From the NCBI GenBank assembly GCA_963758915.1, contig CAVWXH010000012.1, positions 1 through 49,144 of the forward strand: a DNA stretch of 49,144 bases, written 5' to 3'. The stretch's first letter is position 1. Every line of letters starts with the position of its first letter. Shown piece after piece: positions 3,740-35,518 of the stretch. A program made the position numbers and the translations under genes. This DNA is from an uncultured Methanomicrobiales archaeon (GTDB lineage: Archaea > Halobacteriota > Methanomicrobia > Methanomicrobiales > Methanospirillaceae). The notes beneath the pieces were generated by a model, which made no database searches, was not told the DNA's origin, and worked only from the letters and a program-made list of their open reading frames with translations.

Positions 3740-4120
3740 ATGCCTCACAGGAAAGTAAGGGTGCTGGTTGTTGAGGATGACGGGGAGTTACGCGAAGTTC
3801 TCAGGCTTTTTATCGAGAAATACGGCTACCACCTGTGCGGTATGGCCGAATCCGGTGAAGAAGCCCTTGAACTTATCAGGGAAACCTCCCCTAACCTTGT
3901 GTTTATCGATATTGTACTTAAGGGGAAAATGACCGGGATTGGACTCGCACGCCATATTAACAGGGAAGTCGGAATCCCGTTCATTTATATAACAGGGCAC
4001 TCGGATGCACACATTATTGAAGAAGTGATCCATACGCGCCCCAGTGCCTTCATCCTGAAGCCTTTTGCCGGCGAGGAGCTGAAAGTCGCAGTGGAAATTG
4101 CAATACGGAAGAAAACCTGA
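3740..4120 (+). CDS. Stand-alone response regulator receiver (CheY-like)
   Basis: VLVVEDD, phospho-acceptor LVFIDI, ITGH, KPF motifs. Confidence 0.92.
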   Translation: MPHRKVRVLVVEDDGELREVLRLFIEKYGYHLCGMAESGEEALELIRETSPNLVFIDIVLKGKMTGIGLARHINREVGIPFIYITGHSDAHIIEEVIHTRPSAFILKPFAGEELKVAVEIAIRKKT

Positions 4121-4430
4121 TTTTTTCCCCATATTATTGCTAATATGAGCCCCCTGCTAATTCAGACCTAAAAGTCGGGGGGTAATTCATGAAATGAGAA
4201 TTTTTCAAGGAAGGTTACATTTTGTTATCTGAATAAAATCTCTGGCTTTTCACCCGGTCCGAAGAAATGATATAACCCCAAAAATGAACCCAGCATTAAT
4301 GTTCCCGGAATTTTGAGGTCTATATCCTGATTAAGATGAATTTTATAAAATGTATTGAATTAAAACAAAAATTTAATTAGGATCAATACTCAATCCCCCT
4401 CTTAAATTAGTACTGGGGGTAAACGGGTCG

Positions 4431-4808
4431 ATGTCAGATACGAAAAGAATTCTCGTTGTAGACAGCCTTGAAGGGAGTGAACTCATCACACTCATCATAA
4501 AAAAATTCGGTAATCAATTGTGTGGCGTGGCCGAATCCGGGGAAACTGCCATGAAACTTATCAGGGATACAAAACCAGACCTGGTTTTTATCAATGTTGC
4601 CCTGAAAGGGGAGGTGAACTGTACCGGGCTTGCATGTCATATCAACCAGCATGAGAAGATCCCCTTCATCTACATGACCGAACACGCAGATAAAGAGGAT
4701 GTCGACGAGGTAATCCATACCCGTCCCAGCATGTTCCTGCTGAAACCATTCGTCGAAAGCGAGATTAACCAGGCGATTAATATTGCAACGCGGAAACAGG
4801 CCGGATAA
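4431..4808 (+). CDS. Atypical (pseudo-)receiver protein, paralog of 3740..4120
   Basis: Receiver fold sequence but acidic pocket VVDSLE and phospho-Asp replaced by Asn (LVFINV); shares EVIHTRPS..LKPF with the upstream gene. Confidence 0.85.
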   Translation: MSDTKRILVVDSLEGSELITLIIKKFGNQLCGVAESGETAMKLIRDTKPDLVFINVALKGEVNCTGLACHINQHEKIPFIYMTEHADKEDVDEVIHTRPSMFLLKPFVESEINQAINIATRKQAG

Positions 4809-5037
4809 TTAACAACCACGGACAAGGGGATACCGGGGGTTCCATTGCATTGACGGATCCTGGTTTATAGTTCACCTGGCTTTTGCAATACCGGAATTGT
4901 ATTCTTATCCAGTATATGATAACTAACAACGAAATGGATATTATCAGAAAACAGGACCGAATAAGAAGAAATCATTATTTACTATCATTTTCAGTACCAT
5001 TTAACCATACAATGGATTTAAAGGAGTCCCTGGTCCA

Positions 5038-5406
5038 ATGCCTGATGTAACAATCCTCGTTGTCGATGATGAGGAAAATATTCTCAATATTTTCCGCCTG
5101 GTGCTTGAGAGTAACGGCTACAAGGTTGATACGGCAGCTACTGCACATGAGGCACTCGAAAAAGTGAAGTCAGGCAAGTTCCAGGTCTGTCTTCTCGATA
5201 ATAACCTTCCTGATATGCATGGTACAGAACTCCTGAGGCAGATCCACCAGATTGATCCGGCTATGAAAAAACTGATGGTCACCGGGGACTGGTCGCCAAG
5301 AGATGTGGAACTTGCAAAGAAAAACGGGGCTGATGAGTTTGTTGCAAAACCCCTGAACAAGGCAGCCCTCCTCGAAGCAGTCAAGGCGGTATTACCAACT
5401 GCCTGA
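5038..5406 (+). CDS. Stand-alone response regulator receiver (CheY-like)
   Basis: ILVVDDE, LLDNNLPDMHG, VTG, KP motifs; aaggag upstream. Confidence 0.92.
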   Translation: MPDVTILVVDDEENILNIFRLVLESNGYKVDTAATAHEALEKVKSGKFQVCLLDNNLPDMHGTELLRQIHQIDPAMKKLMVTGDWSPRDVELAKKNGADEFVAKPLNKAALLEAVKAVLPTA

Positions 5407-5428
5407 ACGGGCTGGTCCGGAGGCTTAA

Positions 5429-5445
5429 TTTTTTTTGATTTTTTT
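5429..5445 (+). terminator. Oligo-T archaeal terminator
   Basis: T8-ga-T7 tract about 22 nt after the stop of 5038..5406. Confidence 0.5.
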
Positions 5446-5532
5446 CCTGGGCAGTTCTTGGAAGTATACCGGAAAAAAAGATAACCTCCCGGGCATAGCA
5501 TATACATGAACGGTTTATCCGGGTGAGGCACC

Positions 5533-7819
5533 ATGACGATGAAACCCTGCAGGAGGAACTATTACCTGGCGATCCTGTTCCTGGTAATTTGTACAGTCGT
5601 GGTTGCTGCTGTTGTTTTGACGGTGGCCGGCAATGATGCCGTGGCAAGGGAAAAAATGGCACGCCAGCAGGTACTGACGGAGACGATCAGCCTCCGTGGC
5701 ACCGTGCTTGGCGTGAATGGAACACCGCTTGGCGGGGCAACAGTATCCCTGAAGGACAGGACTGTCACAACCAGTGCTGACGGTACGTTTATTGTCAGCG
5801 GCTTATCACGCCAGAACAACATGGCGGTGATCGATGCACCCCGCCACCGGAAAGAGTTCATCCCCGTCCACCTTTTCCTGCCGGTCCTGGTGAAGGAAGT
5901 GGAGCTGGCCCCGGTCTACATGACCGTAGCCGACCCCGGCCAGGTCCGGTTCCTGTTCGGCGGGGACACACATTTCGGGCGCCGTTATATCGACCCCCTG
6001 GAAACAACCCCGAGGGACCAGGTGCCGCCAGATAACAAAAGTGCCCTTATCAACGTTTCAGACCCCGAACCCGGGACACGCGGGGTTGTCCAGTACATCC
6101 GGCCATTTTTCCAGGACGCTGATTTCAGCAGCGTGAACCTTGAGTCCCCCGTAACTGCAAATGTATCAACCCCTCACCTGACAAAAGATTACGTTTTAAT
6201 GACCCTGCCGGGTTCCCTGCCTGCACTGAAATGGATGGGTGTTTCTTATGTTTCTCTCGGGAACAACCATGTCTATGATTACCGGGAGCAGGGGATACTC
6301 AGATACCCTTGATTCCCTGAAAGCCGTAGGCATTTCCAATAGTGGTGCAGGACGTAATGTCACAGAGGCGTTCAAGGCGTACCGGGTCGTTCTGAACGGG
6401 ACCCCCTACGCTTTCCTCGCGATGAATTCAATCGATGGTATCGAACATCCCATCGATTATGTTGCAGCTGACCACAAGGGAGGGTCGGCTAACCTGAAAG
6501 ACACAACGAGGGTGACTGCCGCCATCCAGCGTGAAACAGACGCGGGATATGTCCCGATAGTCCAGATCCACGGGGGCGATGAATATGTCTATGATACACC
6601 GGATTACATCAGCGGCAGGATGGACCTGGTGGTGAACTCCGGGGCAGCGCTTGTGGTGTCAGAACATTCCCATATTGCAGAAGGTGTGGGGATAAGGGAT
6701 GGTATCGTCGTGATTAAAGGGCTTGGCAACATGGCATTTGATGCCGAGCGCCACGAGACGATGCTTGGCCTCCTTGCCCGGGTTGACATGAAAGGGGAAG
6801 AGGTGCAGTCGGTGCGGCTCATACCGGTCTACATCGGCAACTATACACCAGTCCCACTTTCCGGCGACGCTGCGGACCTGCTCCTGCGAAGGATCGGTGA
6901 ATTTTCACGGGACTCTCCCTATCCCGTCTATCCCTATAACGGGCAGGGCTGGGTGGCACTCGGGAAAAAGCAGGCAGCGGTACATGATAGGACAGTTATG
7001 GTGAATATCACGGTCCCGGCATCAGGTTCAGCTGTCGTGGACCTCCGGCAGCTTGCGAAAAGCAACGAATCACTGGCAGATATCAGGGATAATGTTACGA
7101 AAAGCCAGGTCCGGCTCGGGCGTGACCTGATGGTCTACGGGGACTTTGAAGACTGGGATGTCGATGAGATGACCGGGGAGACGAACCATTGGGATACAAA
7201 CATGGGTTCAGTGGAAATGGCCGTGTTACAACCATACCGTGGAACCCAGAACCTTATGAGTATACGCCATTTTGGTAATAGTGCGGATTCCGTGATACCC
7301 TTCAGGAACAGGATCCGTGTGATGGGGGATGCCCGGGGCCAGACTCCGAATAAAAATCTCACATTCCTCGGTTATATCCGCGGCCAGGATGCGGGGCCCG
7401 TGAAAGTTATCGCAAAGTACCTTGCAAGCGAAGACCCTGTGGACGGTAGCGGGGGGATGACATTTGGCGAGGAGGAGGTCCTGGCAATCCCGGGAGGTAC
7501 ATTCCCGTGGCAGCAGTATGTCTCCGATATCCATATGCCACCCGACGACCCTGCAGTCCCGAGAGATCCGGTTGCAGATCCACGGGCACTCCAGGTCTTT
7601 ATCCACCATTCGGCATCACCGAAAACCACAAGCATCGCGGAGTTCGATGATTTCGCCATTATTTCCTGGGAGGAGACGGTCAACAGTTCACGGGGTGCAA
7701 CACTTCGGACCCCTCATGCCAGGGATTTCCTCCGGATTAACGGGACACCAGGTACCCACCAGCTGACCCTGACGTTTGAATCGTATTCCCCTCTTTTTGG
7801 TGAAAGCAGCACAGGGTAG
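5533..7819 (+). CDS. Secreted CapA/PGA_cap-family metallophosphatase-fold protein with N-terminal carboxypeptidase-regulatory-like domain; frameshift ~6295
   Basis: Signal/TM segment; GTVLGVNGTPLGGATV; FGGD, VNLESP, SLGNNHVYDY, HGGDEY, EHSH, GLGN motifs of the CapA family; ORFs 5533..6312 and 6239..7819. Confidence 0.8.
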
Positions 7820-7867
7820 TGATTTCCTCGCTGCCGGCTGAATACCTCACTTTTTTTTAAAAAGTCA

Positions 7868-7998
7868 AAAAAGAAATGTTATCAGCTCGCTGAAAACACT
7901 ACTAATTCAGGCTTCAATATCAGGGGGGTTTGCCTAAGATCCGGTTACAGATGAATGTGGAAACCTCCTTTAGATTGGAACGACTTGAGGGTTTCCAA
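7868..7998 (+). promoter_or_regulatory. Conserved upstream/leader element, copy 1
   Basis: aaaaaagaaa-tgttatc...ctgaaaacacta...tcaggcttcaatatcaggggggtttgcct...ggaaacctcc is shared with 11735..11866. Confidence 0.65.
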
Positions 7999-10900
7999 AT
8001 GTACCTGAACGGGAAGATGTATTGCTTAATTTTGGTATGCACAGTTATTTGCGTATTATTTGCACCGGTTTTTGCGGCGAGCGATCTATTGCCAGGGAGG
8101 GACATTGGCTCAGTAAGTCCTGTTAGCGGGCAGCAGGTGATCCAGCCATCAGATGTGACGCCTCTGCCAGAGACTCCGGTAATAGTAACCGTAGAACCCA
8201 CGCCGATTCCAACAAGCGAACCGATAACAATCGAACCTACTACGGTACCAACAACTCAGCCGACTACTGTTGAAACAACCGTATTGACCATGGAACCAAC
8301 TCCAATCCCCACGACAATAAGTATTCCACTTGTACCTATAATTTCTCCAGAAGACCAGGCACAGGCAGGCAACGACTCAAATATCAGCAATATCGCTCCA
8401 GCCATCACAGGTACCTGTCAAAATGCAACAATAGAACTGAACCAGTCGTCCAGCAACCCCCCGTCCGGAGGCTTCAACCTTTCGTGGACCGCAAGCCTCA
8501 CCGATCCCCCGCTCAACAACACCAACCTGCAGGGAACTGCGGGGGGCCAGTACTGGGAGATCAATGCGACCACCGGTTCCAATGGTTATTATCCCCTCGA
8601 CCTTGTCGGACTCATCACCAATTCCCTGTTCGGGATCTGGATCCATGATGTAACCAATGTGACCCTTGACGGGATGGGTCATACCCTCCAGTATACCGGC
8701 TCTCCGGATATCGGGGCTACCGGAGTGGTAATTAACGGGACAACAACCAGCAATGTCCTGATCAGGAACCTGACCCTTCTCGGCTGGGACACTGGGATCT
8801 CGATCCATGACTCTGACAATGTCTATGTGATGGACAATGTCACGATTACCGGGAACAAAGGATCCGCTTACACCGGGTCAGGAATTGTTGCAACGGACTC
8901 CACCAATATTTTTATCGCATCGAACCCCTATGCCGGGCCAGTGACGGTTCAGAACAACGCCCGGGACGGGATTGTCTTTGACAACGTTACCGGAGGACTA
9001 ATCAACAATACCTATGTGATGAATAACAGAAATAGCGGGATTAATCTTACCTTTACAGAAGGGGTTACGGTGCTGAATGTCACTGCTACAGGGAACTCCC
9101 AACACGGCATCATTCTCGAAAGTTCAGGCAACAACAACCTCACGAACAACACGGTGAGCGGGAGCGACTATCACGGCATCATTCTCGAAAGTTCAAGCTA
9201 CAACAATCTGACTGACAACACGGCGAGCGGGAATAAACTATCCGGCATCATTCTCTACCAAAATTCGAACTACAACAACCTCACGAACAACACCGCAAAC
9301 TCGAATAATGTAGGCATTTACATCGTTCAATCAGACCACAACAACCTCACCGGCAATACGGCGGACCAGAACGGTGGCGTAATATCCGGCGGAAACGGCT
9401 ATGGGTTCTATCTCTACGGATCGAATTACAACAACCTTACCAACAACACCGCTACCAGGAATTACGGCGTCAATATGGACTGCGGTAATGGCGGTAACGG
9501 GTATGGGTTCTTCCTCAACAGCTCGAATAACAACACCCTGACGACCAATAATGCTAGAGGGAATTATGGCGGTAATGGCGGCTACGGAGGCTATGCCTAT
9601 TCCGGCGGTAACGGCGGGAACGGGTATGGGTTCTTCCTCAACGACTCGAATAACAACACCCTCGCGGACAACAATGCCATGGGGAATTATGGTGGTAATG
9701 GCGGCAACGGAGGCTACGCCGATCCCGGCGGTAATGGCGGTAACGGGTATGGGTTCTTCCTCAACGGCTCGAATAACAACACCCTCGCGGACAACAATGC
9801 CATGGGGAATTATGGCGGTAATGGCGGCAACGGCAACAATATGGGCTACGAGGATAACGGCACTAATGGCGGTGGCAGCGGCTCTGGCTATGGCTTCTAC
9901 CTCACAGGCTCGAATAACAATACCCTCATGTACAACAATGCCAGTTGGAATTATGGCAGTAACGGCGGGAACGGCGGCTACGGCTTTTACGGGGGAATCG
10001 GTGGAGACGGCGGCTCTGGCTATGGGTTCTACCTTACAAGCTCGGATAATAATACCCTCATGTACAACAAAGCCAGTTGGAATTATGGCGGTAATGGTGG
10101 GACCGGCGGAAGCGGTGCCGGTGGTGGTGACGGTGGCATAGGTGGCAACGGGTTCGGCATCTACCTCACCGGTTCGGGTTACAACAACCTTACCAGTAAT
10201 AATGCAACCGGGAATTACGGCGGGACCGGCGGCACTGGCAACAGCTGGAACGGTGGTAGAGGCAACGGCTATGGACTCTACCTCACCGGATCGACCAATA
10301 ACAACCTCACGAATAACACTGCAACACAAAATGGCGAAAATGGGTTCTATCTCGAGGGCTCCCAGTCGAACAACCTCACGAACAACACCGCAACCGGAAA
10401 TAACGTAACTGGGTTCTATCTCGAAGACTCAGACGAAAACACATTCACGAACAACAATGCCAGTGATAATAACTGGAATGGTATTGTAATCCACGACTCC
10501 GATGATAACACCCTTTACGGTAACACCATCAGCAATAATGGCAGGAATCCTACCGTTCTCCCTGAGGGAATTTTTGGTATGCCTTCCCTGGGGGAATACC
10601 GTCTCTCCGGTGCTGATGACAATATCATCAACCACAACTGGATAACCGGAACAGCGGTACTGAATTTCTTACGAGATTCGCAAGACAACCCATTTACGAC
10701 AATTATTTCAATAACACGCAGAATGCAATCGTTTTACGTATACCAAGTCACCGGAAAACGAACTTTTGACTACAAGCGGTCCCTCTTTCAACAACAATAA
10801 CTGGAACATCGACCCCCACACCGGGCACCAACATCGCCAATGGCCCGTATATTGGCGGGAATTACTGGGCAACACCCGAACGGGACCGGCTGGTCGCAGA

Positions 10901-25357: not shown

Positions 25358-27407
25358 TTATATTTTAAAATCTGCTACAACTTTACTGACCTTAGACGGG
25401 GTCAGTTCGAATTGTTCGATCCATTGTTTTGATCCCATCTGGACAATAACCTCATAAAACCCGAGTTTCATGTGGTCAAATGTATGAGGCGTGCTCTCTC
25501 CCGGTGTCCAGCCGTTCAGGAAGATACTGGCACCTTTTGGAAGACTGTCGACTACGATTGTGCCTTCCCCGTAATTCTCCATGGGGAACAGGACCTTCTG
25601 GGGTGTAGTGTTTGAATCCCTGATTTCAAGGGTAACAATCTTTTCAACGGGGTATAATCCCGGCTTTGATAACATGATCCGGTGAAGACTCCCGGAAATC
25701 TCGGTAAAGGTATGGGGTGTAGTATACCCCGTCCTGAAGCCGTCGATGAAGATCTCGGCTCCCTCGGGAACTGAATTGACCAGCAGCGGTGGATGTGGTT
25801 CCTGTTGTTCAACAAGATTCATTGAAACCGTAGGTTGGTTCGTGCAGGGAATAAGGAAGGAGGTATATGCTTCACCTTTCCGTACACCGATAAACGACCC
25901 CGGACAGCCGGCACTGATTGTTGCCGGAAGCCTTCCTACCGGGTACCTGCCGTTAATGGTAAATTCAGCACCAGAATAGGCCCCTGGACTGATCGTGACC
26001 CGTTTCGATATAAGGACCTCCTCGGTATCGACATTGTACATTGTCAGTGCATCATGGTACACCCACACACTCCGCGTATAGGTGACCGGGCCGCTTGCCT
26101 TGTCGGCCCTGAGTATACTAATGGTGTGCTGGCCTTCCGGGTACCCGTAGTAAAGGAACGGGGTCCCTCCTTTGACCTGCACCCCGTCAATGGAGAGATC
26201 GAGCCTGTCCGGGAAAGAAGTCACATACATGCCGCCGTACCTGTTCTGCGCTGTCGATTTACCCGCTGTCACGAACAGGGCCTCCATAGTAGATGTGAGA
26301 GGAATTTCAAGCGTTTTATCCTCATCGAGGGTCAAATCTTCATCGTAGGCAAGATACCCGGTGCGGGTCAGGCTCAACGTATACTTCTTCTGTTCGAGGT
26401 CGGTCATGACAAACGGGGTTGTGCCGGTCCGGTTCCCGTTCAGCACGATAAGTGCACCACTGGGGTAAGAATTGACGGTAAGGTTGAATACGGGCATTGG
26501 TACCGGGGCCGGTGTAGGCTGAACGGGAACCGCTTCAGTTATAGTGAGGTTGGCGGCAGGCAGTAACGTGGGGGCTGATGTAACATTCCGGGCTGCACGG
26601 GCTGCCAGATTCTCCGGGTTGAGAAGGAACCGCTCTTCAGGGACAGGCCCGTATAACGGCGAACCGATCAGGTCATCGGCAGACCTGTTTGTCCAGATCG
26701 ATTTATTTTCCGCTGAATAATTCCGGAGGCTTCCCCGGAAGGCCCGCGGGGTGACTTCAGTAAACTGGAGAATACTTTTGATAAGATTGGCATACCCCGT
26801 CCGGAGCATATTTGGTGGCGGGCCCTCCTCCTCATCTTCCGAAATTGTATCATTGGGGATGCCTGTTGCCGGGGTCGTAAGGCTGGAATACTCATCGGCA
26901 TGAAGGGTCAGGTTGATACTGGTTTTCAGTCCACGTCCCGCAATTTCCGATAGTTCCATCATCTGGCCCTTCATTTCCTGGAACCCGCTTTCATTCCCCG
27001 ACAAGGAGTCCTGCCCGGCACCGCCCTCTTTTTTACCAGGGCCTGCCGGTACCCCTGCCTGGCGGGTCTGGTTGATACTCCTTTTAATTCCCATTCCTGC
27101 TATTTCCAACAGTTCTGCGGAGTTCCCCTGTACTGCGAGATAGAGGTCTTTTGCCCGACCGATTGGTACTGGTAACACCCGCGATGTATCGGGTAATCTC
27201 CGTGTTGTTTCCTTCCCGGAAGACAATGGTCTGATTAACGGACTGTGGGACAGGACAGATGGGATTGCCAAACTGGTCAACTTCTGTGCAGGCCGGGGTA
27301 GCCGGATCTTCCGCTGCTGCCACAGCAACAAATGCTGAAAGTACGAGGAGAAGTATAACCGCATAGCAGAGGAGGCCATGCTTTGCATCTTCCTGTTGTC
27401 CCCTCAT
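25358..27407 (-). CDS. Secreted multi-PEGA domain protein; frameshift ~27150
   Basis: Signal peptide in ORF 27084..27407; several PEGA repeats (VNSYPSGA...GTTP, VNSVPEGAEIFIDG...TTP, VDSLPKGASIFLNG) in ORF 25358..27388. Confidence 0.8.
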
Positions 27408-28447
27408 AATCCCTCCGGTCTTCGAATCCGGACATCAACCTGCCGGAATGGGATCTCGATTCCTTCCGCATGGAACTGTTCGACGATGCGGGAATTGACA
27501 TAGTCCTGGACATCCCAGGAATTGTCGTAGTTGTTTGTCCAGAGAAGCAGTTGTCCGTTCAGGCTGGATTCCCCTAACTCCAGGAAATACACTGAAGGGG
27601 CCGGGTCCGGAATAACCCATGGAGTTTTCTCCGCAGCCTCGTGGGCAATTTCAAGAAGTAGACTTTTTACCCGTAGAATATTGGTCCCGTACGCCACGGA
27701 GAATGGGATCCTTACCTTCATCAGGTTATCCGGCTGTGCATAATTGACTACCACATTGGATGTAATCTTAGAGTTCGGGATCGTAACAATCTGGTTATCG
27801 AGTGTTTTCAACCGGGTACTTCGAGGCCCGATACTGATAATGTCGCCTAAGAACGTGTCAAACTTGATACGGTCACCAATCTTGAACGGCTTGTCTATCG
27901 TAATTACTGCTCCGGAAAAAAAATTCCCGATGAGATCCTGGGCGGCAAGGGCAAGGGCAATCCCTGCGATCCCGGCACCGGCAAGGAGCGGTGTAATATT
28001 GATATCGAAATTTGCAAGAATCAGGAGGACGGCGGCAAACCAGATCAGGTATTTTGTAATGATCTCGAGCATGGGCAGCAGCCGGTCATCGAAGTCTGTT
28101 TCAGTCTTCGCTGCAACAACCGAACCATATGTCCGTATCAGGTCGTGTGAAAACGACGAGACAATCCATCCCCCGATCAGGATGAAAAATGCATTTACGT
28201 ACTGGTCAACCGTAAATCCGGCGATAGTTTCAGGCAGGATCCCGAAATGGGTCAGTGCAATGTATACCGAGCCCGCAAGGATCGTGATGACCAGCGGTTT
28301 TCCGAGTGCCGCCAGCAGGATATCGTCAAGTTGCGATTCGGTTTCTGATGCCTTTTTTTTCAGCCACCGGATAACGACGTGGGCAATTCCCGCTATTATC
28401 AGGCCTAAAACAATGGTAAGGCCTGCATAAAGTATCCCAGGGTCCAT
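27404..28447 (-). CDS. mscS: Small-conductance mechanosensitive channel
   Basis: LLAGAGIAGIALALAAQDLIGNFFSG, DKPFKIGDRI, IPNS, VAYG, GIEIPF. Confidence 0.93.
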   Translation of the reverse strand: MDPGILYAGLTIVLGLIIAGIAHVVIRWLKKKASETESQLDDILLAALGKPLVITILAGSVYIALTHFGILPETIAGFTVDQYVNAFFILIGGWIVSSFSHDLIRTYGSVVAAKTETDFDDRLLPMLEIITKYLIWFAAVLLILANFDINITPLLAGAGIAGIALALAAQDLIGNFFSGAVITIDKPFKIGDRIKFDTFLGDIISIGPRSTRLKTLDNQIVTIPNSKITSNVVVNYAQPDNLMKVRIPFSVAYGTNILRVKSLLLEIAHEAAEKTPWVIPDPAPSVYFLELGESSLNGQLLLWTNNYDNSWDVQDYVNSRIVEQFHAEGIEIPFRQVDVRIRRPEGL

Positions 28448-28499
28448 TACAGATACCCTCCTTATCCCGGTATCAGCGATGCTTATCGTGCTCACCCGA

Positions 28500-29343
28500 T
28501 CACAACTTCTTATACCAGACATTCATGCTCTCCAGTGAGCCGCAGATGTTGGTATTATTGGGGAGGAGTCCCCCGAACTGGTATCCAGAACCTGCAAACG
28601 TGGTATTGATCGGTTTGGAAATTGCCCTGGCAATGGTGTATGCCAGCAATCCACCCTCCTTTTTTACTTCAGTTTCCATTGCATGAAGCAGGTTTACGGC
28701 AAGTCCTCTTCCACGGAACCCGGGATCGGTTGCAAAATCCGTCATCTCCGCAGTCTTATTGTCAGCATTGAACTCAAAAGACGCTACAGCAGCAAGCTGA
28801 TGAGATTTTTTGATGATAAAATACCGCACCTGCTTCTGCATAGACTCCCTGATATATTCAGGGTCAGAAATGGGGAATGGGTATGTTTTAAAGACCGATT
28901 GGTACAGGGCTGCAATATCCTTCGCATCTCCGGAATGGCCATGCATCAGTGAGAATCCCTCCATCAGCTTATCAGGGGATCTCTCGCCCGCATATCCGAA
29001 CGCTGCCGAAAGGACCTCTGCAATTACCGTTGCATCTGGGACATCCTTCCGTTTTGGATCTGTATATTTTGCCATGAAAACAGCAGTATCTGATCCGTTG
29101 TAAAAAAGCGGGATGGTCGCTTCAGCCTGCGTAACCCGCCTCCGTAAAAATATCCACCGAGGATTCCGGCACCTTGACAAAGATTTTCGTGTAACCTTCT
29201 TTGTGAGTTAGTTCATCGGCGTACCGGATAATATCCGGGATATCTTCCCGGGCCAATTTCATTATATATACTCTGTTATTGATTTTGCCGTGCTGGAGGA
29301 CGCTGTTTCCCCGGTGCACTACAACATCACAATGCGTCATCAT
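28500..29343 (-). CDS. ablB: Beta-lysine N6-acetyltransferase (GNAT); frameshift ~29140
   Basis: [64 protein letters not shown]; GGAGGT SD; overlaps end of ablA. Confidence 0.9.
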
Positions 29344-30788
29344 ACCTCCTTTCAATCCGGTCATTATTTGCCGGGATCAGTGTCGTTGTTTCGTCATAAT
29401 CTGCAAGAAGCCTGGCAACACCGACTACTTTTGACTCGTCCCCCCGGTCAATGTTCAGGTGGAGTTTACATTCGGCACAATCTCCGTTGCAGAAGATGCG
29501 GTCATAGTTGGCTGGTTCCTGGTAGGTACAGATCATCCCCTCGTAATTGCGGAGCACCACCTTGTGCACTGACCACGTCAGCAGGTAGTTAGGGAAGATC
29601 GGGATCTTTCCTCCGCCACCTGGTGCATCGATAACGTACCTGGGGACGGCGAACCCGCTGGTGTGGCCGACGAGGTTCTCCATGATTTCGATACCTTTGG
29701 AGACAGGGGTACGGAAATGGCTGATACCTTCGGACAGATCACACTGGTACAGGTAATATGGCCGGACACGGTTCCTGACGAGCTCATGGATAAGCGCTTT
29801 CATAATCCTTGGACAGTCATTGATCCCGGCAAGGAGAACGGACTGGTTTCCGAGCGGAATACCTGCATCCGCAAGTTTTGCAATAGCAATTCGCGTAGAC
29901 TCTGTCATCTCCTTGGGGTGGTTGAACTGCATGTTCACCCAAAGAGGGTGGTGCTTTTTCAGCATGGTAACGAGATCATCAGTCACTCTGAACGGGAGCG
30001 TTACGGGTACACGGGTCCCGATTCGGATTACTTCTACGTGAGGAATAGCACGGAGCTCGGTGAGTATCCAGTCGAAGGTACTCATTGGAGAGCATGAACG
30101 GGTCACCACCGGAGAGCAGCACATCGCGTATCTGCGGGGTGTTCCGGATGTATTCAATACCCGCAAGGATCTCTTCCCGTTCGGGGATCGAATCAACATC
30201 GCCGACCTTTCGTTTCCGGGTGCAATGCCGGCAGTACATCGCACAGGTATTGCTGACAAGGAACAGTACCCTGTCCGGGTACCGATGCGTGATACATGTA
30301 CACGGGCTGTCCTTATCTTCAGCCAACGGGTCGGAGAGCTCGTAATTTTCGATAATGAGTTCATTGGGAGATGGGAATGCCTGCTTGAAAATCGGGTCAT
30401 TCTGATAATCATTCACATCAATGAGGGAGATGTAATAAGGAGTGATATTGAGAGGAAATTTATCGATCGTCTTCTGGAGCTGTTCCCGCTCCTCCCGATT
30501 GAAACGGATACCGAGGACCTGTTCGACTGTTGCAAGGTCCCTTATTGCATGCCGCATCTGCCAGCGCCAGTCTTTCCAGAACTCGGGAGTCCGTTCGGAT
30601 TCAATGGTATTCCGGATAATTGATGGATCATCCGGTTTTTCTCCTCCCTCATAATGACCCCTCAGGACAGAGATAATATCCTTAACCGTATTTTTTACCT
30701 GGCCACTCACCTGCTTCACTGAGCGAAGGGTGGCAACAGATACCCCGGTTTCCTTTGGTTCTTTCGGGACATCGGAATTATTTGTCAT
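29327..30788 (-). CDS. ablA: Lysine 2,3-aminomutase (radical SAM/PLP); frameshift ~30076
   Basis: [61 protein letters not shown]. Confidence 0.95.
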
Positions 30789-30800
30789 CGTTGAGATCCC

Positions 30801-31946
30801 TCAAAACAACCACTGCATCTTCGGTTTTTTCACCGGTAGGAGATCACCGGGTTCAGTTGAATGGTGCCGGTAATCGTCAAACCAGCGTGCCAACGGGTTG
30901 CTCTGAAAAATCATGAACTTCCCGATTTGTGCCGGATCTGCTGACTGGTGGTATCGCATGAAGACGTGTCCAGCGGTCTTTCCTACCATCTCAATCTTGC
31001 CGGTCGCATGGGACATGATAAACCGGGCCCGCTTTGCAAGTCCTGAACAGGTCTCCCACGATTTCTGGAGGACTTCGTAGGATTGCTCAAGGGGGACCTG
31101 GAAGAACTGGTTACCGATGGTCGGCCTGCACTGGAAGACGTAATATGGAGAAATGCCGGCAAATGACAACCTCCGGAAGAGCATTGTCAGGGTTTCCGGT
31201 TCGTTATTGATACCGTTCAGGATCGGCGTCTGGTTGACAACGATAACCCCTGCCTTTCTGAGCGCTTCTGCAGCCTGTATTGAAACTTCGGTCAGTTCAC
31301 GGGGATGGTTGAAATGTGCCATCAGGTAGATACGTTTCTCCGGTGTGCTGAGGCGTGAGAGGACGTCGAGCAGGTTGGGATCGTTCAGGATCCTGTAGGG
31401 ATTATAGGCCAGCATTTTGCTGCCGATCCGGATGATATTGACGTGTTCGATCTCCCGCAGTTCCCGCAGGATCTTACCCAGATCCCGGGTTTCGAGGGTA
31501 AGCGGGTCACCCCCGGTTACAAGGACATTGGTGATTTCCTTGTGCTCCCGGATGTACTCGATATTATCAGAAACGTCCCTGATGGTTTCACGTTCGCAGG
31601 ACATGAACAGGCGTTTCCGGAAACAGAAGCGGCAGATACCGCCACAAACATCAGTGAGGAGCAGAACACCGGTCTGGCCATATTTATGCTGCAGGCCGGG
31701 TTTTTTGGTATAGTCTTTTTCGCACGAAGGATCAGCAGATCCCCCGGTTTTTAGTTCACAAGAGTCGGGAATAACAATCCTGCGCAGCGGATCGTGCCCG
31801 TCTTTCCAGTCAATCAGCGAGAGATAATAATCGTTGGCACGGAACGGGAACAGTTCCGTCACCGTCTCCATCATCTCCCTCGCTTTAGGGGCGAGCCCGA
31901 CAAGGTTGTCGAGCTCTGAAATGGACGTAATGTACTTCGGGTTCAT
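30801..31946 (-). CDS. KamA-family radical SAM aminomutase paralog, substrate unknown
   Basis: LQHKY, CGGICRFCFRKR, TGGDPL, IRIGSK, HFNHPREL, NQTP..GIN, PYYVFQCR, SHATGK; intact ORF. Confidence 0.9.
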   Translation of the reverse strand: MNPKYITSISELDNLVGLAPKAREMMETVTELFPFRANDYYLSLIDWKDGHDPLRRIVIPDSCELKTGGSADPSCEKDYTKKPGLQHKYGQTGVLLLTDVCGGICRFCFRKRLFMSCERETIRDVSDNIEYIREHKEITNVLVTGGDPLTLETRDLGKILRELREIEHVNIIRIGSKMLAYNPYRILNDPNLLDVLSRLSTPEKRIYLMAHFNHPRELTEVSIQAAEALRKAGVIVVNQTPILNGINNEPETLTMLFRRLSFAGISPYYVFQCRPTIGNQFFQVPLEQSYEVLQKSWETCSGLAKRARFIMSHATGKIEMVGKTAGHVFMRYHQSADPAQIGKFMIFQSNPLARWFDDYRHHSTEPGDLLPVKKPKMQWLF

Positions 31947-32082
31947 TTCTTCACCTCATTCGGGGGTTATAGCCTGCCTGTCAGAGGGCAGGGGTAGAGT
32001 AGTGCGAAAATTTCTGATAGACATTAACAGAATTTGATCGTAGTAACGTGCACCACTCAGTAAACTTTTCTATTGGGCTCAT

Positions 32083-32134
32083 CCTTTAAACCCTTTGTGT
32101 TATTTCAATTATAAATGACGGAAACGTTTAAAGG
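32083..32134. promoter_or_regulatory. 9-bp inverted repeat containing TTTAAA boxes between divergent genes
   Basis: cctttaaac (32083-32091) ... gtttaaagg (32126-32134), 34-nt AT-rich spacer. Confidence 0.45.
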
Positions 32135-32302
32135 GGATTGAAAACGAACCATTTACACCTTGGCCCGATCCTGTTTGCGATGGAAGAATATCGCGGTCTC
32201 GTGGCAGTACCGGAAATCATAAACCTTCAGGCAATCACAATAACCTGATACATAAAGCAGAAATCCCGTAACTATTCCCGGAGTAATCGACTGTGCAATC
32301 AA

Positions 32303-32683
32303 TTGATCATGAAGGGCATTACATTCCCCGCCAGGATTATTCGAAAGATCTCACCGTACCTTTCGGGCCCATGGTTCAGGCTTGCCCTCGTGGCGATTAT
32401 GCTCGTCGTCTATGCTCTCGACCTCAGTAGCCCGCTTGGTGTCCCGGTCTGGCTGCTGTATTTTATCCCGCTGATTCTTGCTTTCTGGTCTAAAGCACCA
32501 TACGCAGTTCCTGCGGTCTGTGCGGTAACAATACTCTTTCTTGCAACGGGGTTCGTCTTCTCTCCCCCGGGAATACAGACAACGGCCGCCCTGTTTATCC
32601 GGATTATCTTTTCTGTGGTGTTTGTCGGCACATCTGTTGTGCTCTGGATGATACTCAGGCGACAGGGACGGGTTGACAGGTAA
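32303..32683 (+). CDS. Small hypothetical membrane protein (about 4 TM)
   Basis: Hydrophobic segments with DL..PLG.....LYFIP pattern reminiscent of sensor-kinase N-terminal membrane modules. Confidence 0.65.
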   Translation: MIMKGITFPARIIRKISPYLSGPWFRLALVAIMLVVYALDLSSPLGVPVWLLYFIPLILAFWSKAPYAVPAVCAVTILFLATGFVFSPPGIQTTAALFIRIIFSVVFVGTSVVLWMILRRQGRVDR

Positions 32684-33042
32684 TTATTGACCCTGCTGGC
32701 GGTCATCTTTTTCAGGGCATCCAGGGATGCCTCCGCCCTGAGTTCCTGCCAGAACCCGATAACGCTGTTAACCAGTATCAGCAGGGAGATGACGAGAAAG
32801 TCCTTGATATCGGCGACGAAAAGGGAGATAATGGCTGCAAGGATCAGGATATAGATGAGCAGGCTTTTAAACTGGCGGAGAAATATGACGACCTTTGATG
32901 TTTTTTCTTCTGACAGGGTATTTTTTCCACACACCAAAAGACGCGTAGCGGCCTCAGCTTCTGTAAGACCATGGGGACCGGTGGACAGCTTGCCGGTGAT
33001 CTCTTCAACAGGACATGCGTGGGGGGTTTCAGGCAGTTCCAT
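32684..33042 (-). pseudogene. N-terminal fragment of a P-type cation-transporting ATPase
   Basis: GLTEAEAATRL...GKNTL, FLRQFKSLLIYIL, N..IGFWQE.RAE.SLDALKKM; homology ends at ~32690 and the ORF runs antisense into the neighbour; no DKTGT. Confidence 0.8.
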
Positions 33043-33298
33043 GGGATACTATTGTAACCTTTATCCATGGATATAAAGCATTTCTGGTAACCCAATGCGG
33101 GTAAAAATAAGGGTTACATGATAAAAACGCCTGATAACTGTCCCTTTATACCCCAACTTGTGAAGACATCGACATAACAATGCGACACGCTACAGGATGA
33201 GGGATAGGGCTGGTATTTCCGGCTAAATCCACTCTCTTGATTGAATTCCGCGCAACCAAGAATGTGGGGGATTCAAACAGCGGAAAAATGGGCAGCGG

Positions 33299-34150
33299 TT
33301 ATGGCCTGCGCAGTACGAGCACGGGACACTGTGCGTTCCGTGCCACGTGCCCGGTTATGCTGCCGAGAAGGTTTGCAAACATCCCCTTTTTCCCCGTTGA
33401 TTTCAGTACGATCATTGAACTTTCTACATCCCGGGACAGGGAAATAATCTCTTCCGCTGCGTTCCCTACAGGTACCTGCACCGTAACAGGGATCTTCTTT
33501 GTCAAAAAAGCATCTTTCATATTCTCAAGTTTTGTTCTTGCTGTATCAACCAGTGCCTGGACTTCTTCCTCGGACGCTCCTGTCGTCACGACATGGAGCA
33601 GGGTTACCTTTTCTACCGGGGGCAGTTTATCAATGGAAATGGTCATGATTTCAGGCTCCGAAAAATCCGTGCAAATCATGACATTTGAAAAGAAATCCGG
33701 ACAGGAAGAGTCGTGACTGCTTAAAACACCCGCCCCGGGGGGGTGGACGAGGACCAGGTCCTTCTTTCCATAGCGGAGGACATCTGATGCTACACTCCCC
33801 AGTACGAGGCTTTCAATCACCCCCTGCCCACGTCTTCCCATCAATACCAGCGGTATCTTTTCCCGCATGGCAACCCGGTTGATAACATCAGCGATTTCAC
33901 CACCCGTGATTTCCTCGATGATTGCTTTGGCCTGCAACCCCCTGGTTTCCAGGCTTTTTACCAGTTCCAAAAGACGTAAGCGTGCATAGTCGGCATCAGG
34001 GGATACCCCGCACTCAAGGTTCGACGGGCACTTGCTATACAAAATGTGAAGCAGAATTACTTCGCGAATTTGTGGGATTTTCTTCAGACACTCGACCACG
34101 TAATTGGAATCTGCAGAGAAGTCAAACGGGACTAACACTTTTTCAAACAT
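33299..34150 (-). CDS. Universal stress protein with tandem USP domains
   Basis: MFEKVLVPFDFS, MGRRG...LGSVA, second domain CTDFS...LLGSIT..VAR....PVLV. Confidence 0.92.
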   Translation of the reverse strand: MFEKVLVPFDFSADSNYVVECLKKIPQIREVILLHILYSKCPSNLECGVSPDADYARLRLLELVKSLETRGLQAKAIIEEITGGEIADVINRVAMREKIPLVLMGRRGQGVIESLVLGSVASDVLRYGKKDLVLVHPPGAGVLSSHDSSCPDFFSNVMICTDFSEPEIMTISIDKLPPVEKVTLLHVVTTGASEEEVQALVDTARTKLENMKDAFLTKKIPVTVQVPVGNAAEEIISLSRDVESSMIVLKSTGKKGMFANLLGSITGHVARNAQCPVLVLRRP

Positions 34151-34320: not shown

Positions 34321-35518
34321 TCAGATCGCATCCTCGTCAACCGTGGGACACTCCCCCTTGTAGAACCAGTTCCGGTACACGATTGGTGTGATAATCGTTG
34401 TAACGAGACTCATCAGGACAAGTGCCACGTAGATATTCTGGTCGATGATCCCCTGCTGGAGCCCGATCAGTGCGACGATCATGGCGACCTCCCCTCTTGG
34501 CGCCATGCCGAACCCGACAATAAGGGAGTCCTTGGTTGACAGGCCCATCAGTTTCGCCGGTATTCCACACCCGATCACCTTGGTGAGAATTGCCACAATG
34601 ATAAGCACGATGAGGAAGATGACGATCCCGGGCGTCAGCTGTCGTAAATCAGCGAGTACACCAAGCGAAACGAAAAATATCGATGCAAAGATAATCTGGA
34701 GGTATTCTGCACCCTCCTTGATATCCCGGCAGTGGGTAAGGCGGACACCCTCGAACGAGACTCCCGGCGATAAACGCCCCCACGATTGCAGAGAGGCCGG
34801 TCAGTTCTGCCATCATGGCGTAGAAAAACGCCATCATCATGGCAAAAATAAATATAAATTCCGGGAACTTCCTTGCAAAGCGGGACCGGTCAAGGCGCTC
34901 TATATACCGGCTCACGACGAAGATACCAAAAGCCCCGGCAAGGACAATAAAGGCGATTGCTTTTATTATCACGAACGCAATTCCCTGCGGAGAGAAAACT
35001 CCTTCGACGACTTCTGAACTCACCGAGAGTGCGAGCAGCGACAGCACATCATCAATAACGGCCGCCCCGATAATCGCTTTTGCAGCATCGGTCTGGAGTT
35101 TTCCCATCTCACGGAGGACGTTTGCCGTAATTGCGATGCTCGTCGCGGTGAGCGCCGTCCCGATGAAAATCGCACTCGATGTATCAAACCCGAATGCGAT
35201 GGAGATCCCATACCCGCCAATCCATGGAACAATCACCCCTACTGCTGCAATCACCCCGTTGCGTATGCCGACAATGTCCTGGATCTTGAATTCGAGACCG
35301 ATAACAAAGAGCAGGATCACGGCCCCGAGATTTGCAAGGCCTGCTACGAAATCCGTATAGGTAATCAGCCCGAGCACACTCGGACCGACAACGATTCCGA
35401 CGAGAATCAGCCCGATAACAGCGGACTGGTTGATACGCGAAGCAACGAGGTAACCGGCCAGGGCCACAAACAGTAACAGGCTCATCTGGAATACCGGCTG
35501 CATCAGGATATTTTCCAT
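34321..35518 (-). CDS. Cation:proton antiporter (CPA2/NapA-like); frameshift ~34763
   Basis: LGAVILLFVIGLE, TATSIAIT, AAVIDD, IVGAFIAG, TKVIGC, MAPRGEV. Confidence 0.9.

Follow-up and report, generated by a model that had tools for sequence, protein, structure and literature searches.

A gene on the minus strand of contig CAVWXH010000012.1 (30801..31946; assembly GCA_963758915.1) was analysed with respect to its product, its neighbourhood and its distribution among genomes. The DNA examined, positions 1 to 49,144 of this contig (49,144 nt in total), is referred to as the window and stems from an uncultured archaeon of the order Methanomicrobiales. The host genome comprises 2.38 Mb in 18 contigs and is 94% complete; its nearest named relatives are metagenome-assembled genomes (MAGs) assigned to Methanoregula and the Methanoregulaceae. 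As judged from open reading frame (ORF) analysis, hidden Markov model (HMM) searches and alignment, the gene is intact and codes for a 381-aa KamA-family aminomutase of the radical S-adenosylmethionine (SAM)/pyridoxal phosphate (PLP) type, within a clade marked by the motifs FQCRP and MSHxxGK. On the minus strand it is followed by a second KamA-family gene, ablA, then by ablB and a gene for an MscS channel, and it is called the paralog in the following. Its predicted substrate pocket differs from those of the lysine and glutamate 2,3-aminomutases and suggests a substrate with an anionic side chain.

The KamA paralog and its substrate pocket

The paralog starts with ATG, preceded by a Shine-Dalgarno-like GAGGTGA that forms a strong ribosome-binding site. 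The ablA start codon at 30788 follows the paralog stop after a gap of 12 nt, so that the tandem arrangement of two KamA-family genes given in the initial annotation was confirmed from the coordinates. No lesion was present in the ORF, and comparison with the 94%-identical locus of a relative (L034) gave a ratio of nonsynonymous to synonymous substitution rates (dN/dS) of 0.09 with zero indels across 1146 nt. A non-coding leader (31947..32150, minus strand) was read from the sequence upstream of the gene. Several A/T-rich, TATA-like boxes lie 135-195 nt 5' of the ATG. An Rfam search of positions 28000-33500 at an expect value (E) of up to 1 returned no family besides one chance miRNA match.

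All motifs that had been listed for the paralog (CxxxCxxC with the following Arg, the Lys of SHATGK, FQCR and FIMS) were located in the protein. The cluster motif is C101-x3-C105-x2-C108, with Arg110 two residues after it, and the three cysteines are predicted to bind a [4Fe-4S] cluster. The GGD motif consists of G145-G146-D147. FQCR occupies residues 271-274 and FIMSHATGK residues 309-317, the final residue of which, Lys317, is of the PLP type and would be the residue holding this cofactor. The three cysteines, residues 145-147 and K317 were invariant in the clade alignment. In lysine 2,3-aminomutase (LAM), the GGD motif and the counterpart of Arg110 serve SAM binding and binding of the substrate alpha-carboxylate.

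Two further positions, here called site 1 and site 2, correspond to Asp293 and Asp330 of LAM, the ligands of the lysine epsilon-ammonium group. The AblA sequence in the window keeps both of its motifs there, YQCD and YVID (YVID...GGGGK), as had been noted. For the paralog, a by-eye alignment had indicated an exchange of Asp for Arg and of Asp for Ser. This reading was upheld by HMMER at site 1 and by MAFFT at both sites. In the HMMER alignment to PDB entry 2A5H, Arg274 stands opposite Asp293 of the LAM motif YQCD. A MAFFT alignment of nine sequences, which took in an intact AblA, one protein passing the AblA model, two bacterial glutamate aminomutases named by NCBI and two long archaeal proteins, agreed and placed Arg274 opposite Asp of the lysine enzymes or Lys of the glutamate types. 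At site 2 the same alignment placed Ser312 opposite Asp of the lysine aminomutases or Asn of the glutamate types. Since the register at site 2 shifts by one residue between alignments, Ser312 and His313 are taken jointly as the replacement of Asp330, with Ser312 as the best candidate equivalent to within about one residue. Retention of the Asp residues was also checked for directly; Arg274 and Ser312 are found in their place, and residues 308-317 contain no acidic residue. Compared with LAM, the paralog (SHATGK) has two residues fewer in the glycine-rich loop that precedes the PLP lysine.

The altered residues are shared by the relatives of the paralog. Arg274, Ser312 and Lys317 were invariant in 26 clade members of 35-87% identity, these rows having been picked for showing the motifs, and the Arg/Ser pair occurred in 43 of 117 rows of an unselected alignment (the paralog and 116 representatives no shorter than 300 aa). 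The core RF[IV][MI]SHxxGK of the motif stretches of clade members is non-acidic except for Glu in place of Arg308 in one protein (P0122). In a FastTree phylogeny of 163 rows, which were grouped by alignment-column signatures, the window clade comprised 61 rows with a Shimodaira-Hasegawa-like support of 98, and 59 of the 61 carried Arg at site 1. Separate branches of the same tree were formed by AblA (6 rows, support 98) and by the named bacterial glutamate 2,3-aminomutases, Eam (7 rows, support 97). Site 1 is occupied by Lys, Met, Gln, Asn or Ala in adjacent subclades, and the KamA scaffold therefore appears to change specificity readily.

Family models gave a concordant picture. The general KamA model TIGR00238 was passed by the paralog at 201.7 bits (cut-off 199.2; 201.9 in the genome search), and the specific models remained below their cut-offs, namely TIGR03820 for lysine (AblA/KamA; 207.1 vs 525.4 bits), TIGR04468 for arginine 2,3-aminomutase (206.1 vs 600 bits), TIGR03821 for EpmB (177.7 vs 369.3 bits) and TIGR04368 for the bacterial glutamate enzyme (217.3 vs 650 bits), the latter being nominally the best specific model. 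The two Asp of LAM are replaced by Arg274 and Ser312, and the paralog likewise has Arg and Ser in place of the Lys/Asn pair that the bacterial glutamate type shows at sites 1 and 2. Lys and Asn were found at the two sites of the NCBI-named Eam proteins P0271 and P0279. Named members score 708-715 bits on TIGR04368, so that the earlier statement that glutamate enzymes carry a basic and a neutral residue holds for NCBI-named proteins above the cut-off of this model. None of the control genomes of the genome searches passed TIGR04368. A distinct KamA subfamily, as proposed earlier, is thus supported by the separate clade and by the failure of the protein in every test for a lysine enzyme.

The LAM_C domain (PF12544), which supplies zinc-binding cysteines in LAM, was not found in the paralog, where PF04055 was the sole match; the ablA piece contains PF12544 at 1.4e-40. 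The AlphaFold model of the paralog has a predicted local distance difference test (pLDDT) value of 91.3 and a distinct C-terminal beta-sheet domain. In this model, Arg274 follows just after strand 266-272, strand 308-313 ends at Ser312-His313, and Lys317 begins the next strand. The sole close match in the PDB was LAM 2A5H, with a template modelling (TM) score of 0.76 and 30% identity over 359 columns. When 1.84 billion cluster representatives were searched exhaustively, 624 proteins were retrieved at E <= 1e-30 and 7462 relatives at E <= 0.001. The best representatives aligned from end to end, the C-terminal sheet included, and had FQCRP and MSHxxGK in common. A search of the ESM Atlas returned generic KamA clusters only.

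Gene neighbourhood and state of ablA and ablB

The ablA gene (29327..30788, minus strand; lysine 2,3-aminomutase, TIGR03820) and the ablB gene (28500..29364, minus strand; beta-lysine N-acetyltransferase, TIGR03827) are each distributed over two frames, those of ablA being 29979..30788 and 29327..30412. Compared with L034, each gene contains one extra base, at about 30075 in ablA and at about 29126 in ablB, which had been overlooked in the initial annotation. The dN/dS values are 0.035 for ablA and 0.097 for ablB, and neither further lesions nor stops in the reference frame were found. A 303-nt contig of sequencing run X6 over positions 28990-29293 lacks the extra ablB base and is otherwise identical to the window. 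The extra base in ablA is missing from contigs of three other runs and from L034, all of which are relatives, as no near-identical run covered this site. Since these contigs do not contain the extra bases and both genes are constrained, the frameshifts are probably assembly errors. Decay of ablA and ablB to pseudogenes was considered and dropped in view of the strong purifying selection, the presence of a single extra base only and the X6 contig without it.

Lesions of another kind were seen in ablA elsewhere. In two Methanocorpusculum-like genomes (L039:10537-11850, minus strand; L067:5836-7146, plus strand), ablA is interrupted by in-frame stops at different positions, TAG and TGA in one genome and, at a different codon, TAG in the second, which looks as if ablA had decayed independently in the two. 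Both ablB and the paralog are open in these genomes, and the paralog could replace AblA where ablA is broken.

An MscS-type mechanosensitive channel gene (27404..28522, minus strand) lies directly downstream of ablB. It was also found after ablB in five fetched loci of related genomes, and directly after the paralog in a sixth (L053). On the 5' side of the paralog, the window contains genes for a universal stress protein (Usp) and a Na+/H+ exchanger, as well as a truncated P-type ATPase gene. Across the loci, the salt-related neighbours comprised ablAB, MscS, the Na+/H+ exchanger, Usp, P-type ATPase, DUF1646 and a Na/Ca exchanger.

Two irregularities were noticed in this upstream part. The Na+/H+ exchanger (34321-35518, minus strand) is present as two ORFs of 289 aa and 95 aa, compared with about 446 aa in a relative, possibly by another frameshift in the salt-gene cluster. 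Around positions 32676-32688, about 6.5 kb of the L034 locus (4093-10640) are missing from the window; this segment encodes the remainder of an 823-aa P-type cation ATPase and contains three more ORFs, of 133, 535 and 681 aa. The remnant of the ATPase in the window is a 210-aa N-terminal fragment (32410..33042). The gap could be a real deletion or a collapse in the assembly.

The recurrence of the arrangement was examined in 26 chosen Methanomicrobiales loci, mostly from complete genomes of different genera. The gene was present in 25 of them, which together with the window gave 26 rows, and it adjoined ablA-ablB in 8 of the 26. The order paralog-ablA-ablB recurred in nine named MAG loci and was reversed in one; it was seen in Methanoregulaceae and Methanospirillum. 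No KamA or ablB neighbour was found at any of the bacterial loci examined. The earlier suggestion that one operon may link both functions thus fits the arrangement in the window, where the paralog heads ablAB, and does not extend to the clade in general. Genes connected with glutamate were also observed: glutamate dehydrogenase beside the gene in two families (L042 and L054), a co-oriented gene of the Glu/Gln-tRNA synthetase family upstream of it in both Methanogaster loci, a sodium:dicarboxylate symporter in one locus and, in three bacterial loci, formiminotransferase-cyclodeaminase on the downstream side.

Distribution of the clade and of a long archaeal type

Among 401 Methanomicrobiales genomes, many of which are incomplete and related to one another and thus not independent, 250 gave a KamA-family match. 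In 25 of these it was at the level of AblA only, leaving 225 genomes with the window clade, which was represented in all six families. A match to ablB was obtained in 175 of these 401 genomes. Both genes occurred in 153 genomes, the paralog clade alone in 72, ablB alone in 22 and neither in 154. In the Methanomicrobiales the gene thus co-occurs with ablB. Several of the 72 genomes with the gene and without ablB are single-contig genomes of 95-99% completeness. These 72 carriers, together with the intact paralogs beside broken ablA, argue against a mere accessory role of the paralog.

A scan with one genome per species yielded 588 relatives among 600 pattern matches, and the best 80 of the 588 showed 51-98% identity. 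The archaea among these 80 included Methanoregula, Methanolinea, Methanospirillum, Methanoculleus, Methanocorpusculum, 'Methanogaster' of the ANME-2 group (anaerobic methanotrophic archaea) and Methanosarcinales MAGs. The bacterial MAGs among them, at 51-61% identity, came from Nitrospinota, Calditrichia, Deferribacteres, KSB1, Planctomycetota, Acidobacteriota, Thermodesulfobacteriota and others.

In 2022, a glutamate 2,3-aminomutase from an archaeon was reported (Tunckanat et al., Biochemistry 2022). A search for longer relatives of the window protein returned archaeal KamA proteins of 599-633 aa, named from MAGs of Diapherotrites and ANME-2. This type of about 600 aa probably represents the 2022 enzyme, which is reportedly from Methanococcus maripaludis C7, is extended at its N-terminus by about 160 aa and was assigned from its substrate-binding residues. 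The cluster motif of the long proteins P0463, P0465-P0470 and P0472 is CPQICVYC, located at 314-348. The two members that were aligned, P0463 and P0465, carry the Lys/Asn pair at sites 1 and 2, and in both about 150 residues precede the start of the TIGR04368 alignment. The window protein has 100 residues before its cluster motif and shows neither such an extension nor the Lys/Asn pair. With 31-36% identity and E values of 1e-18 to 1e-26, the long type is farther from the window protein than the lysine aminomutases are. The initial annotation had presented the gene as a candidate archaeal beta-glutamate-forming aminomutase; because an archaeal enzyme had already been reported in 2022, it is not the first such candidate, and the part that stands is that of an uncharacterised branch with a basic/neutral pocket.

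The two types are distributed in a complementary manner. The long type was found in one of the 401 Methanomicrobiales genomes (G083), on a 1.5-kb contig of a genome 78% complete. In a phylum sample of 391 genomes, the long type occurred in 26, the window clade in 84 and both in none. Three families contain both types, in different genera; in genus g53, the long type is present in 12 of 15 genomes and the window clade in 0 of 15, and other genera of this family carry the window clade only. The exclusion counts are small and phylogenetically clustered. Mutual exclusion of this kind is the pattern expected of displacement by a functional equivalent.

Lesions were observed in both types within the phylum sample. 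Seven matches to the paralog clade (G406, G416, G523, G525, G528, G635 and G021) contain one to two in-frame stops and may be decaying copies or sequencing errors. In a complete genome, the long Lys/Asn-type gene (G408:C1:905744-907374) is split into two pieces by an in-frame TAG; it could be a pseudogene, or the TAG could be a read-through codon in a lineage that perhaps uses pyrrolysine.

Substrate assignment and comparison with known aminomutases

Since the invariant Arg274 and Ser312-His313 replace the pocket for the lysine epsilon-ammonium group, a substrate with an anionic side chain is suggested. A basic residue combined with a neutral one is the known glutamate pattern, because named bacterial Eam carry Lys and Asn. 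With moderate confidence, the window enzyme is proposed to be a 2,3-aminomutase that acts on an anionic amino acid, glutamate being the likeliest, and that would serve osmoadaptation beside the N-epsilon-acetyl-beta-lysine pathway. The pocket formed by Arg274 and Ser312-His313 would bind the anionic side chain, and L-glutamate, as the most likely substrate, would be converted to beta-glutamate. Beta-glutamate is a long-known solute of some methanogens, including the Methanomicrobiales species Methanogenium cariaci. Located amid salt-stress genes, the paralog would be co-transcribed or translationally coupled with ablA-ablB, and the cluster would supply an anionic solute (beta-glutamate) together with a zwitterionic one (N-epsilon-acetyl-beta-lysine). 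Glutamate 2,3-aminomutases would then exist in a third sequence type, represented by this clade and replacing the N-terminally extended Lys/Asn type in the Methanomicrobiales and in many other lineages. A role in osmolyte synthesis is consistent with the neighbouring genes and with the co-occurrence with ablB across genomes.

Several points weigh against this assignment. Site 1 is Arg, compared with Lys in both known glutamate types, and because of this Arg and of a Ser-His pair in a loop two residues shorter, the pocket is unlike those of the known glutamate and lysine enzymes. In the alignment of 117 sequences, the register at site 2 was off by one and the LAM Asp fell into a gap. The genes linked with glutamate were found at a handful of roughly 100 loci and are hints without statistics. 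Most families show no conserved neighbour of the gene, and in two families (f3 and f5; L045-L050) it adjoins the origin-associated oapB/oapC and genes for a GTPase and CBS-domain proteins, with no apparent functional link. Many carriers bear genus names of freshwater or digester organisms (Methanoregula, Methanolinea, Methanospirillum). The counts of co-occurrence and exclusion overstate the signal, because related genomes are not independent, and one genome, G083, holds both the long type and the window clade. That the long Lys/Asn type is the enzyme type published in 2022 is our assumption. According to the review of Roberts (2005), early nuclear magnetic resonance (NMR) labelling work spoke against the use of a glutamate aminomutase by methanogens.

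A 2,3-aminomutase for another substrate, such as glutamine, 2-aminoadipate or a phosphorylated, sulfonated or other polar amino acid, with a solute or a building block as product, is the foremost of the rival explanations, although rather unlikely. It would account for the Arg/Ser-His pocket, which matches no characterised class, and for the variation at site 1 in neighbouring subclades. Fusions among relatives in the wider clade (P0126, P0156, P0164, P0391-P0399 and P0404) combine the KamA domain with a DdaG-like ligase and RidA, an ATP-grasp domain of the D-Ala-D-Ala-ligase type, a nonribosomal peptide synthetase (NRPS) condensation domain, TauD-type dioxygenases or a PurD-like ligase. The ATP-grasp, NRPS condensation, DdaG-like ligase plus RidA and TauD fusions resemble natural-product logic, and the fusions as a whole suggest that a beta-amino acid product is used in peptides or natural products, which points to beta-amino acids of secondary metabolism and also weighs against the glutamate assignment. 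However, the nearly fixed Arg (59/61) in a clade that spans many phyla and has no conserved partner fits a free primary metabolite better than an intermediate, and both the complementary distribution with the Lys/Asn archaeal type and the glutamate-linked neighbours at some loci favour glutamate. In its boldest form, this explanation would make the clade an aminomutase with a substrate new to the family, producing an undescribed beta-amino acid solute or building block (e.g. beta-glutamine, 3-aminoadipate or a phospho- or sulfo-beta-form) that is widespread in Methanomicrobiales, ANME archaea and bacteria such as the marine Nitrospinota; this is considered unlikely.

A function within the beta-lysine pathway is quite improbable. 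The paralog would then be a second lysine 2,3-aminomutase (e.g. of opposite stereochemistry, as EpmB), an N-epsilon-acetyl-lysine aminomutase or a partner of AblA, as might be expected from its position 12 nt 5' of ablA, from the same order in Methanoregulaceae and Methanospirillum loci and from the strong genome-level co-occurrence with ablB; in the two Methanocorpusculum-like genomes with a broken ablA beside intact ablB and paralog, it could substitute for AblA. Yet both acidic ligands of the epsilon-ammonium group are lost, with a cationic Arg in this place, the scores are far from the cut-offs for AblA (207 vs 525 bits) and EpmB (178 vs 369 bits), 72 of the 225 carriers show no ablB, and the bacterial loci have neither KamA nor ablB neighbours. 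As every catalytic motif is kept, the protein is not a mere scaffold subunit of AblA. Very improbable is a KamA-fold radical SAM/PLP enzyme other than an aminomutase, catalysing an epimerisation or the modification of a protein- or tRNA-bound residue. In favour of this, the clade is the most divergent of the family and scores only just above the TIGR00238 cut-off, it has a distinct C-terminal beta-sheet domain and lacks LAM_C, and in two families it neighbours replication-origin genes. Against this, the residues at the cluster, SAM, PLP-lysine and alpha-carboxylate sites of LAM are all invariant, and to our knowledge the characterised members of the KamA family are all 2,3-aminomutases.

If the clade makes beta-glutamate, the source of this solute in the Methanomicrobiales would be explained, as the other archaeal type occurs there in only 1 of 401 genomes. 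Glutamate specificity would then have evolved at least twice within the KamA family, on the basis of different pockets (Arg/Ser-His vs Lys/Asn). Proteins now labelled "KamA family" or, wrongly, "lysine 2,3-aminomutase" would receive a functional name, and a compact scaffold of 375-390 aa would become available for beta-amino acid production. If the substrate is another one, the clade would indicate that abundant environmental microbes contain a beta-amino acid as yet unknown. Glutamate 2,3-aminomutase activity itself is already known, and what may be new is the third sequence type.

Among the known systems, LAM (KamA/AblA; Clostridium subterminale, 2A5H, TIGR03820) shares with the window protein the fold, the CxxxCxxC motif with Arg two residues on, GGD, HxxHP and the PLP lysine, whereas the window protein has Arg for Asp293, Ser for Asp330, a shorter glycine-rich loop and no LAM_C domain, and falls into a separate clade. 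The bacterial glutamate 2,3-aminomutase (Eam, TIGR04368), known since 2007 (Ruzicka and Frey 2007), has the family, a basic site 1 and a non-acidic site 2 in common with it. Named Eam proteins of 410-430 aa carry Lys/Asn, an APGGxGK loop and LAM_C, in contrast to Arg/Ser-His and a separate clade for the window protein. With the Methanococcus maripaludis enzyme, the present proposal shares the superfamily and a proposed role of beta-glutamate as a salt-stress solute in methanogens. A further likeness exists to IdnL4 of incednine biosynthesis, which is described in PMC11284099 as a radical SAM enzyme, a putative glutamate 2,3-aminomutase whose role in forming beta-glutamate was deduced from genetics, with no reported in vitro activity. 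IdnL4 belongs to an actinomycete polyketide cluster in which it is paired with a beta-glutamate decarboxylase (PMC11284099).

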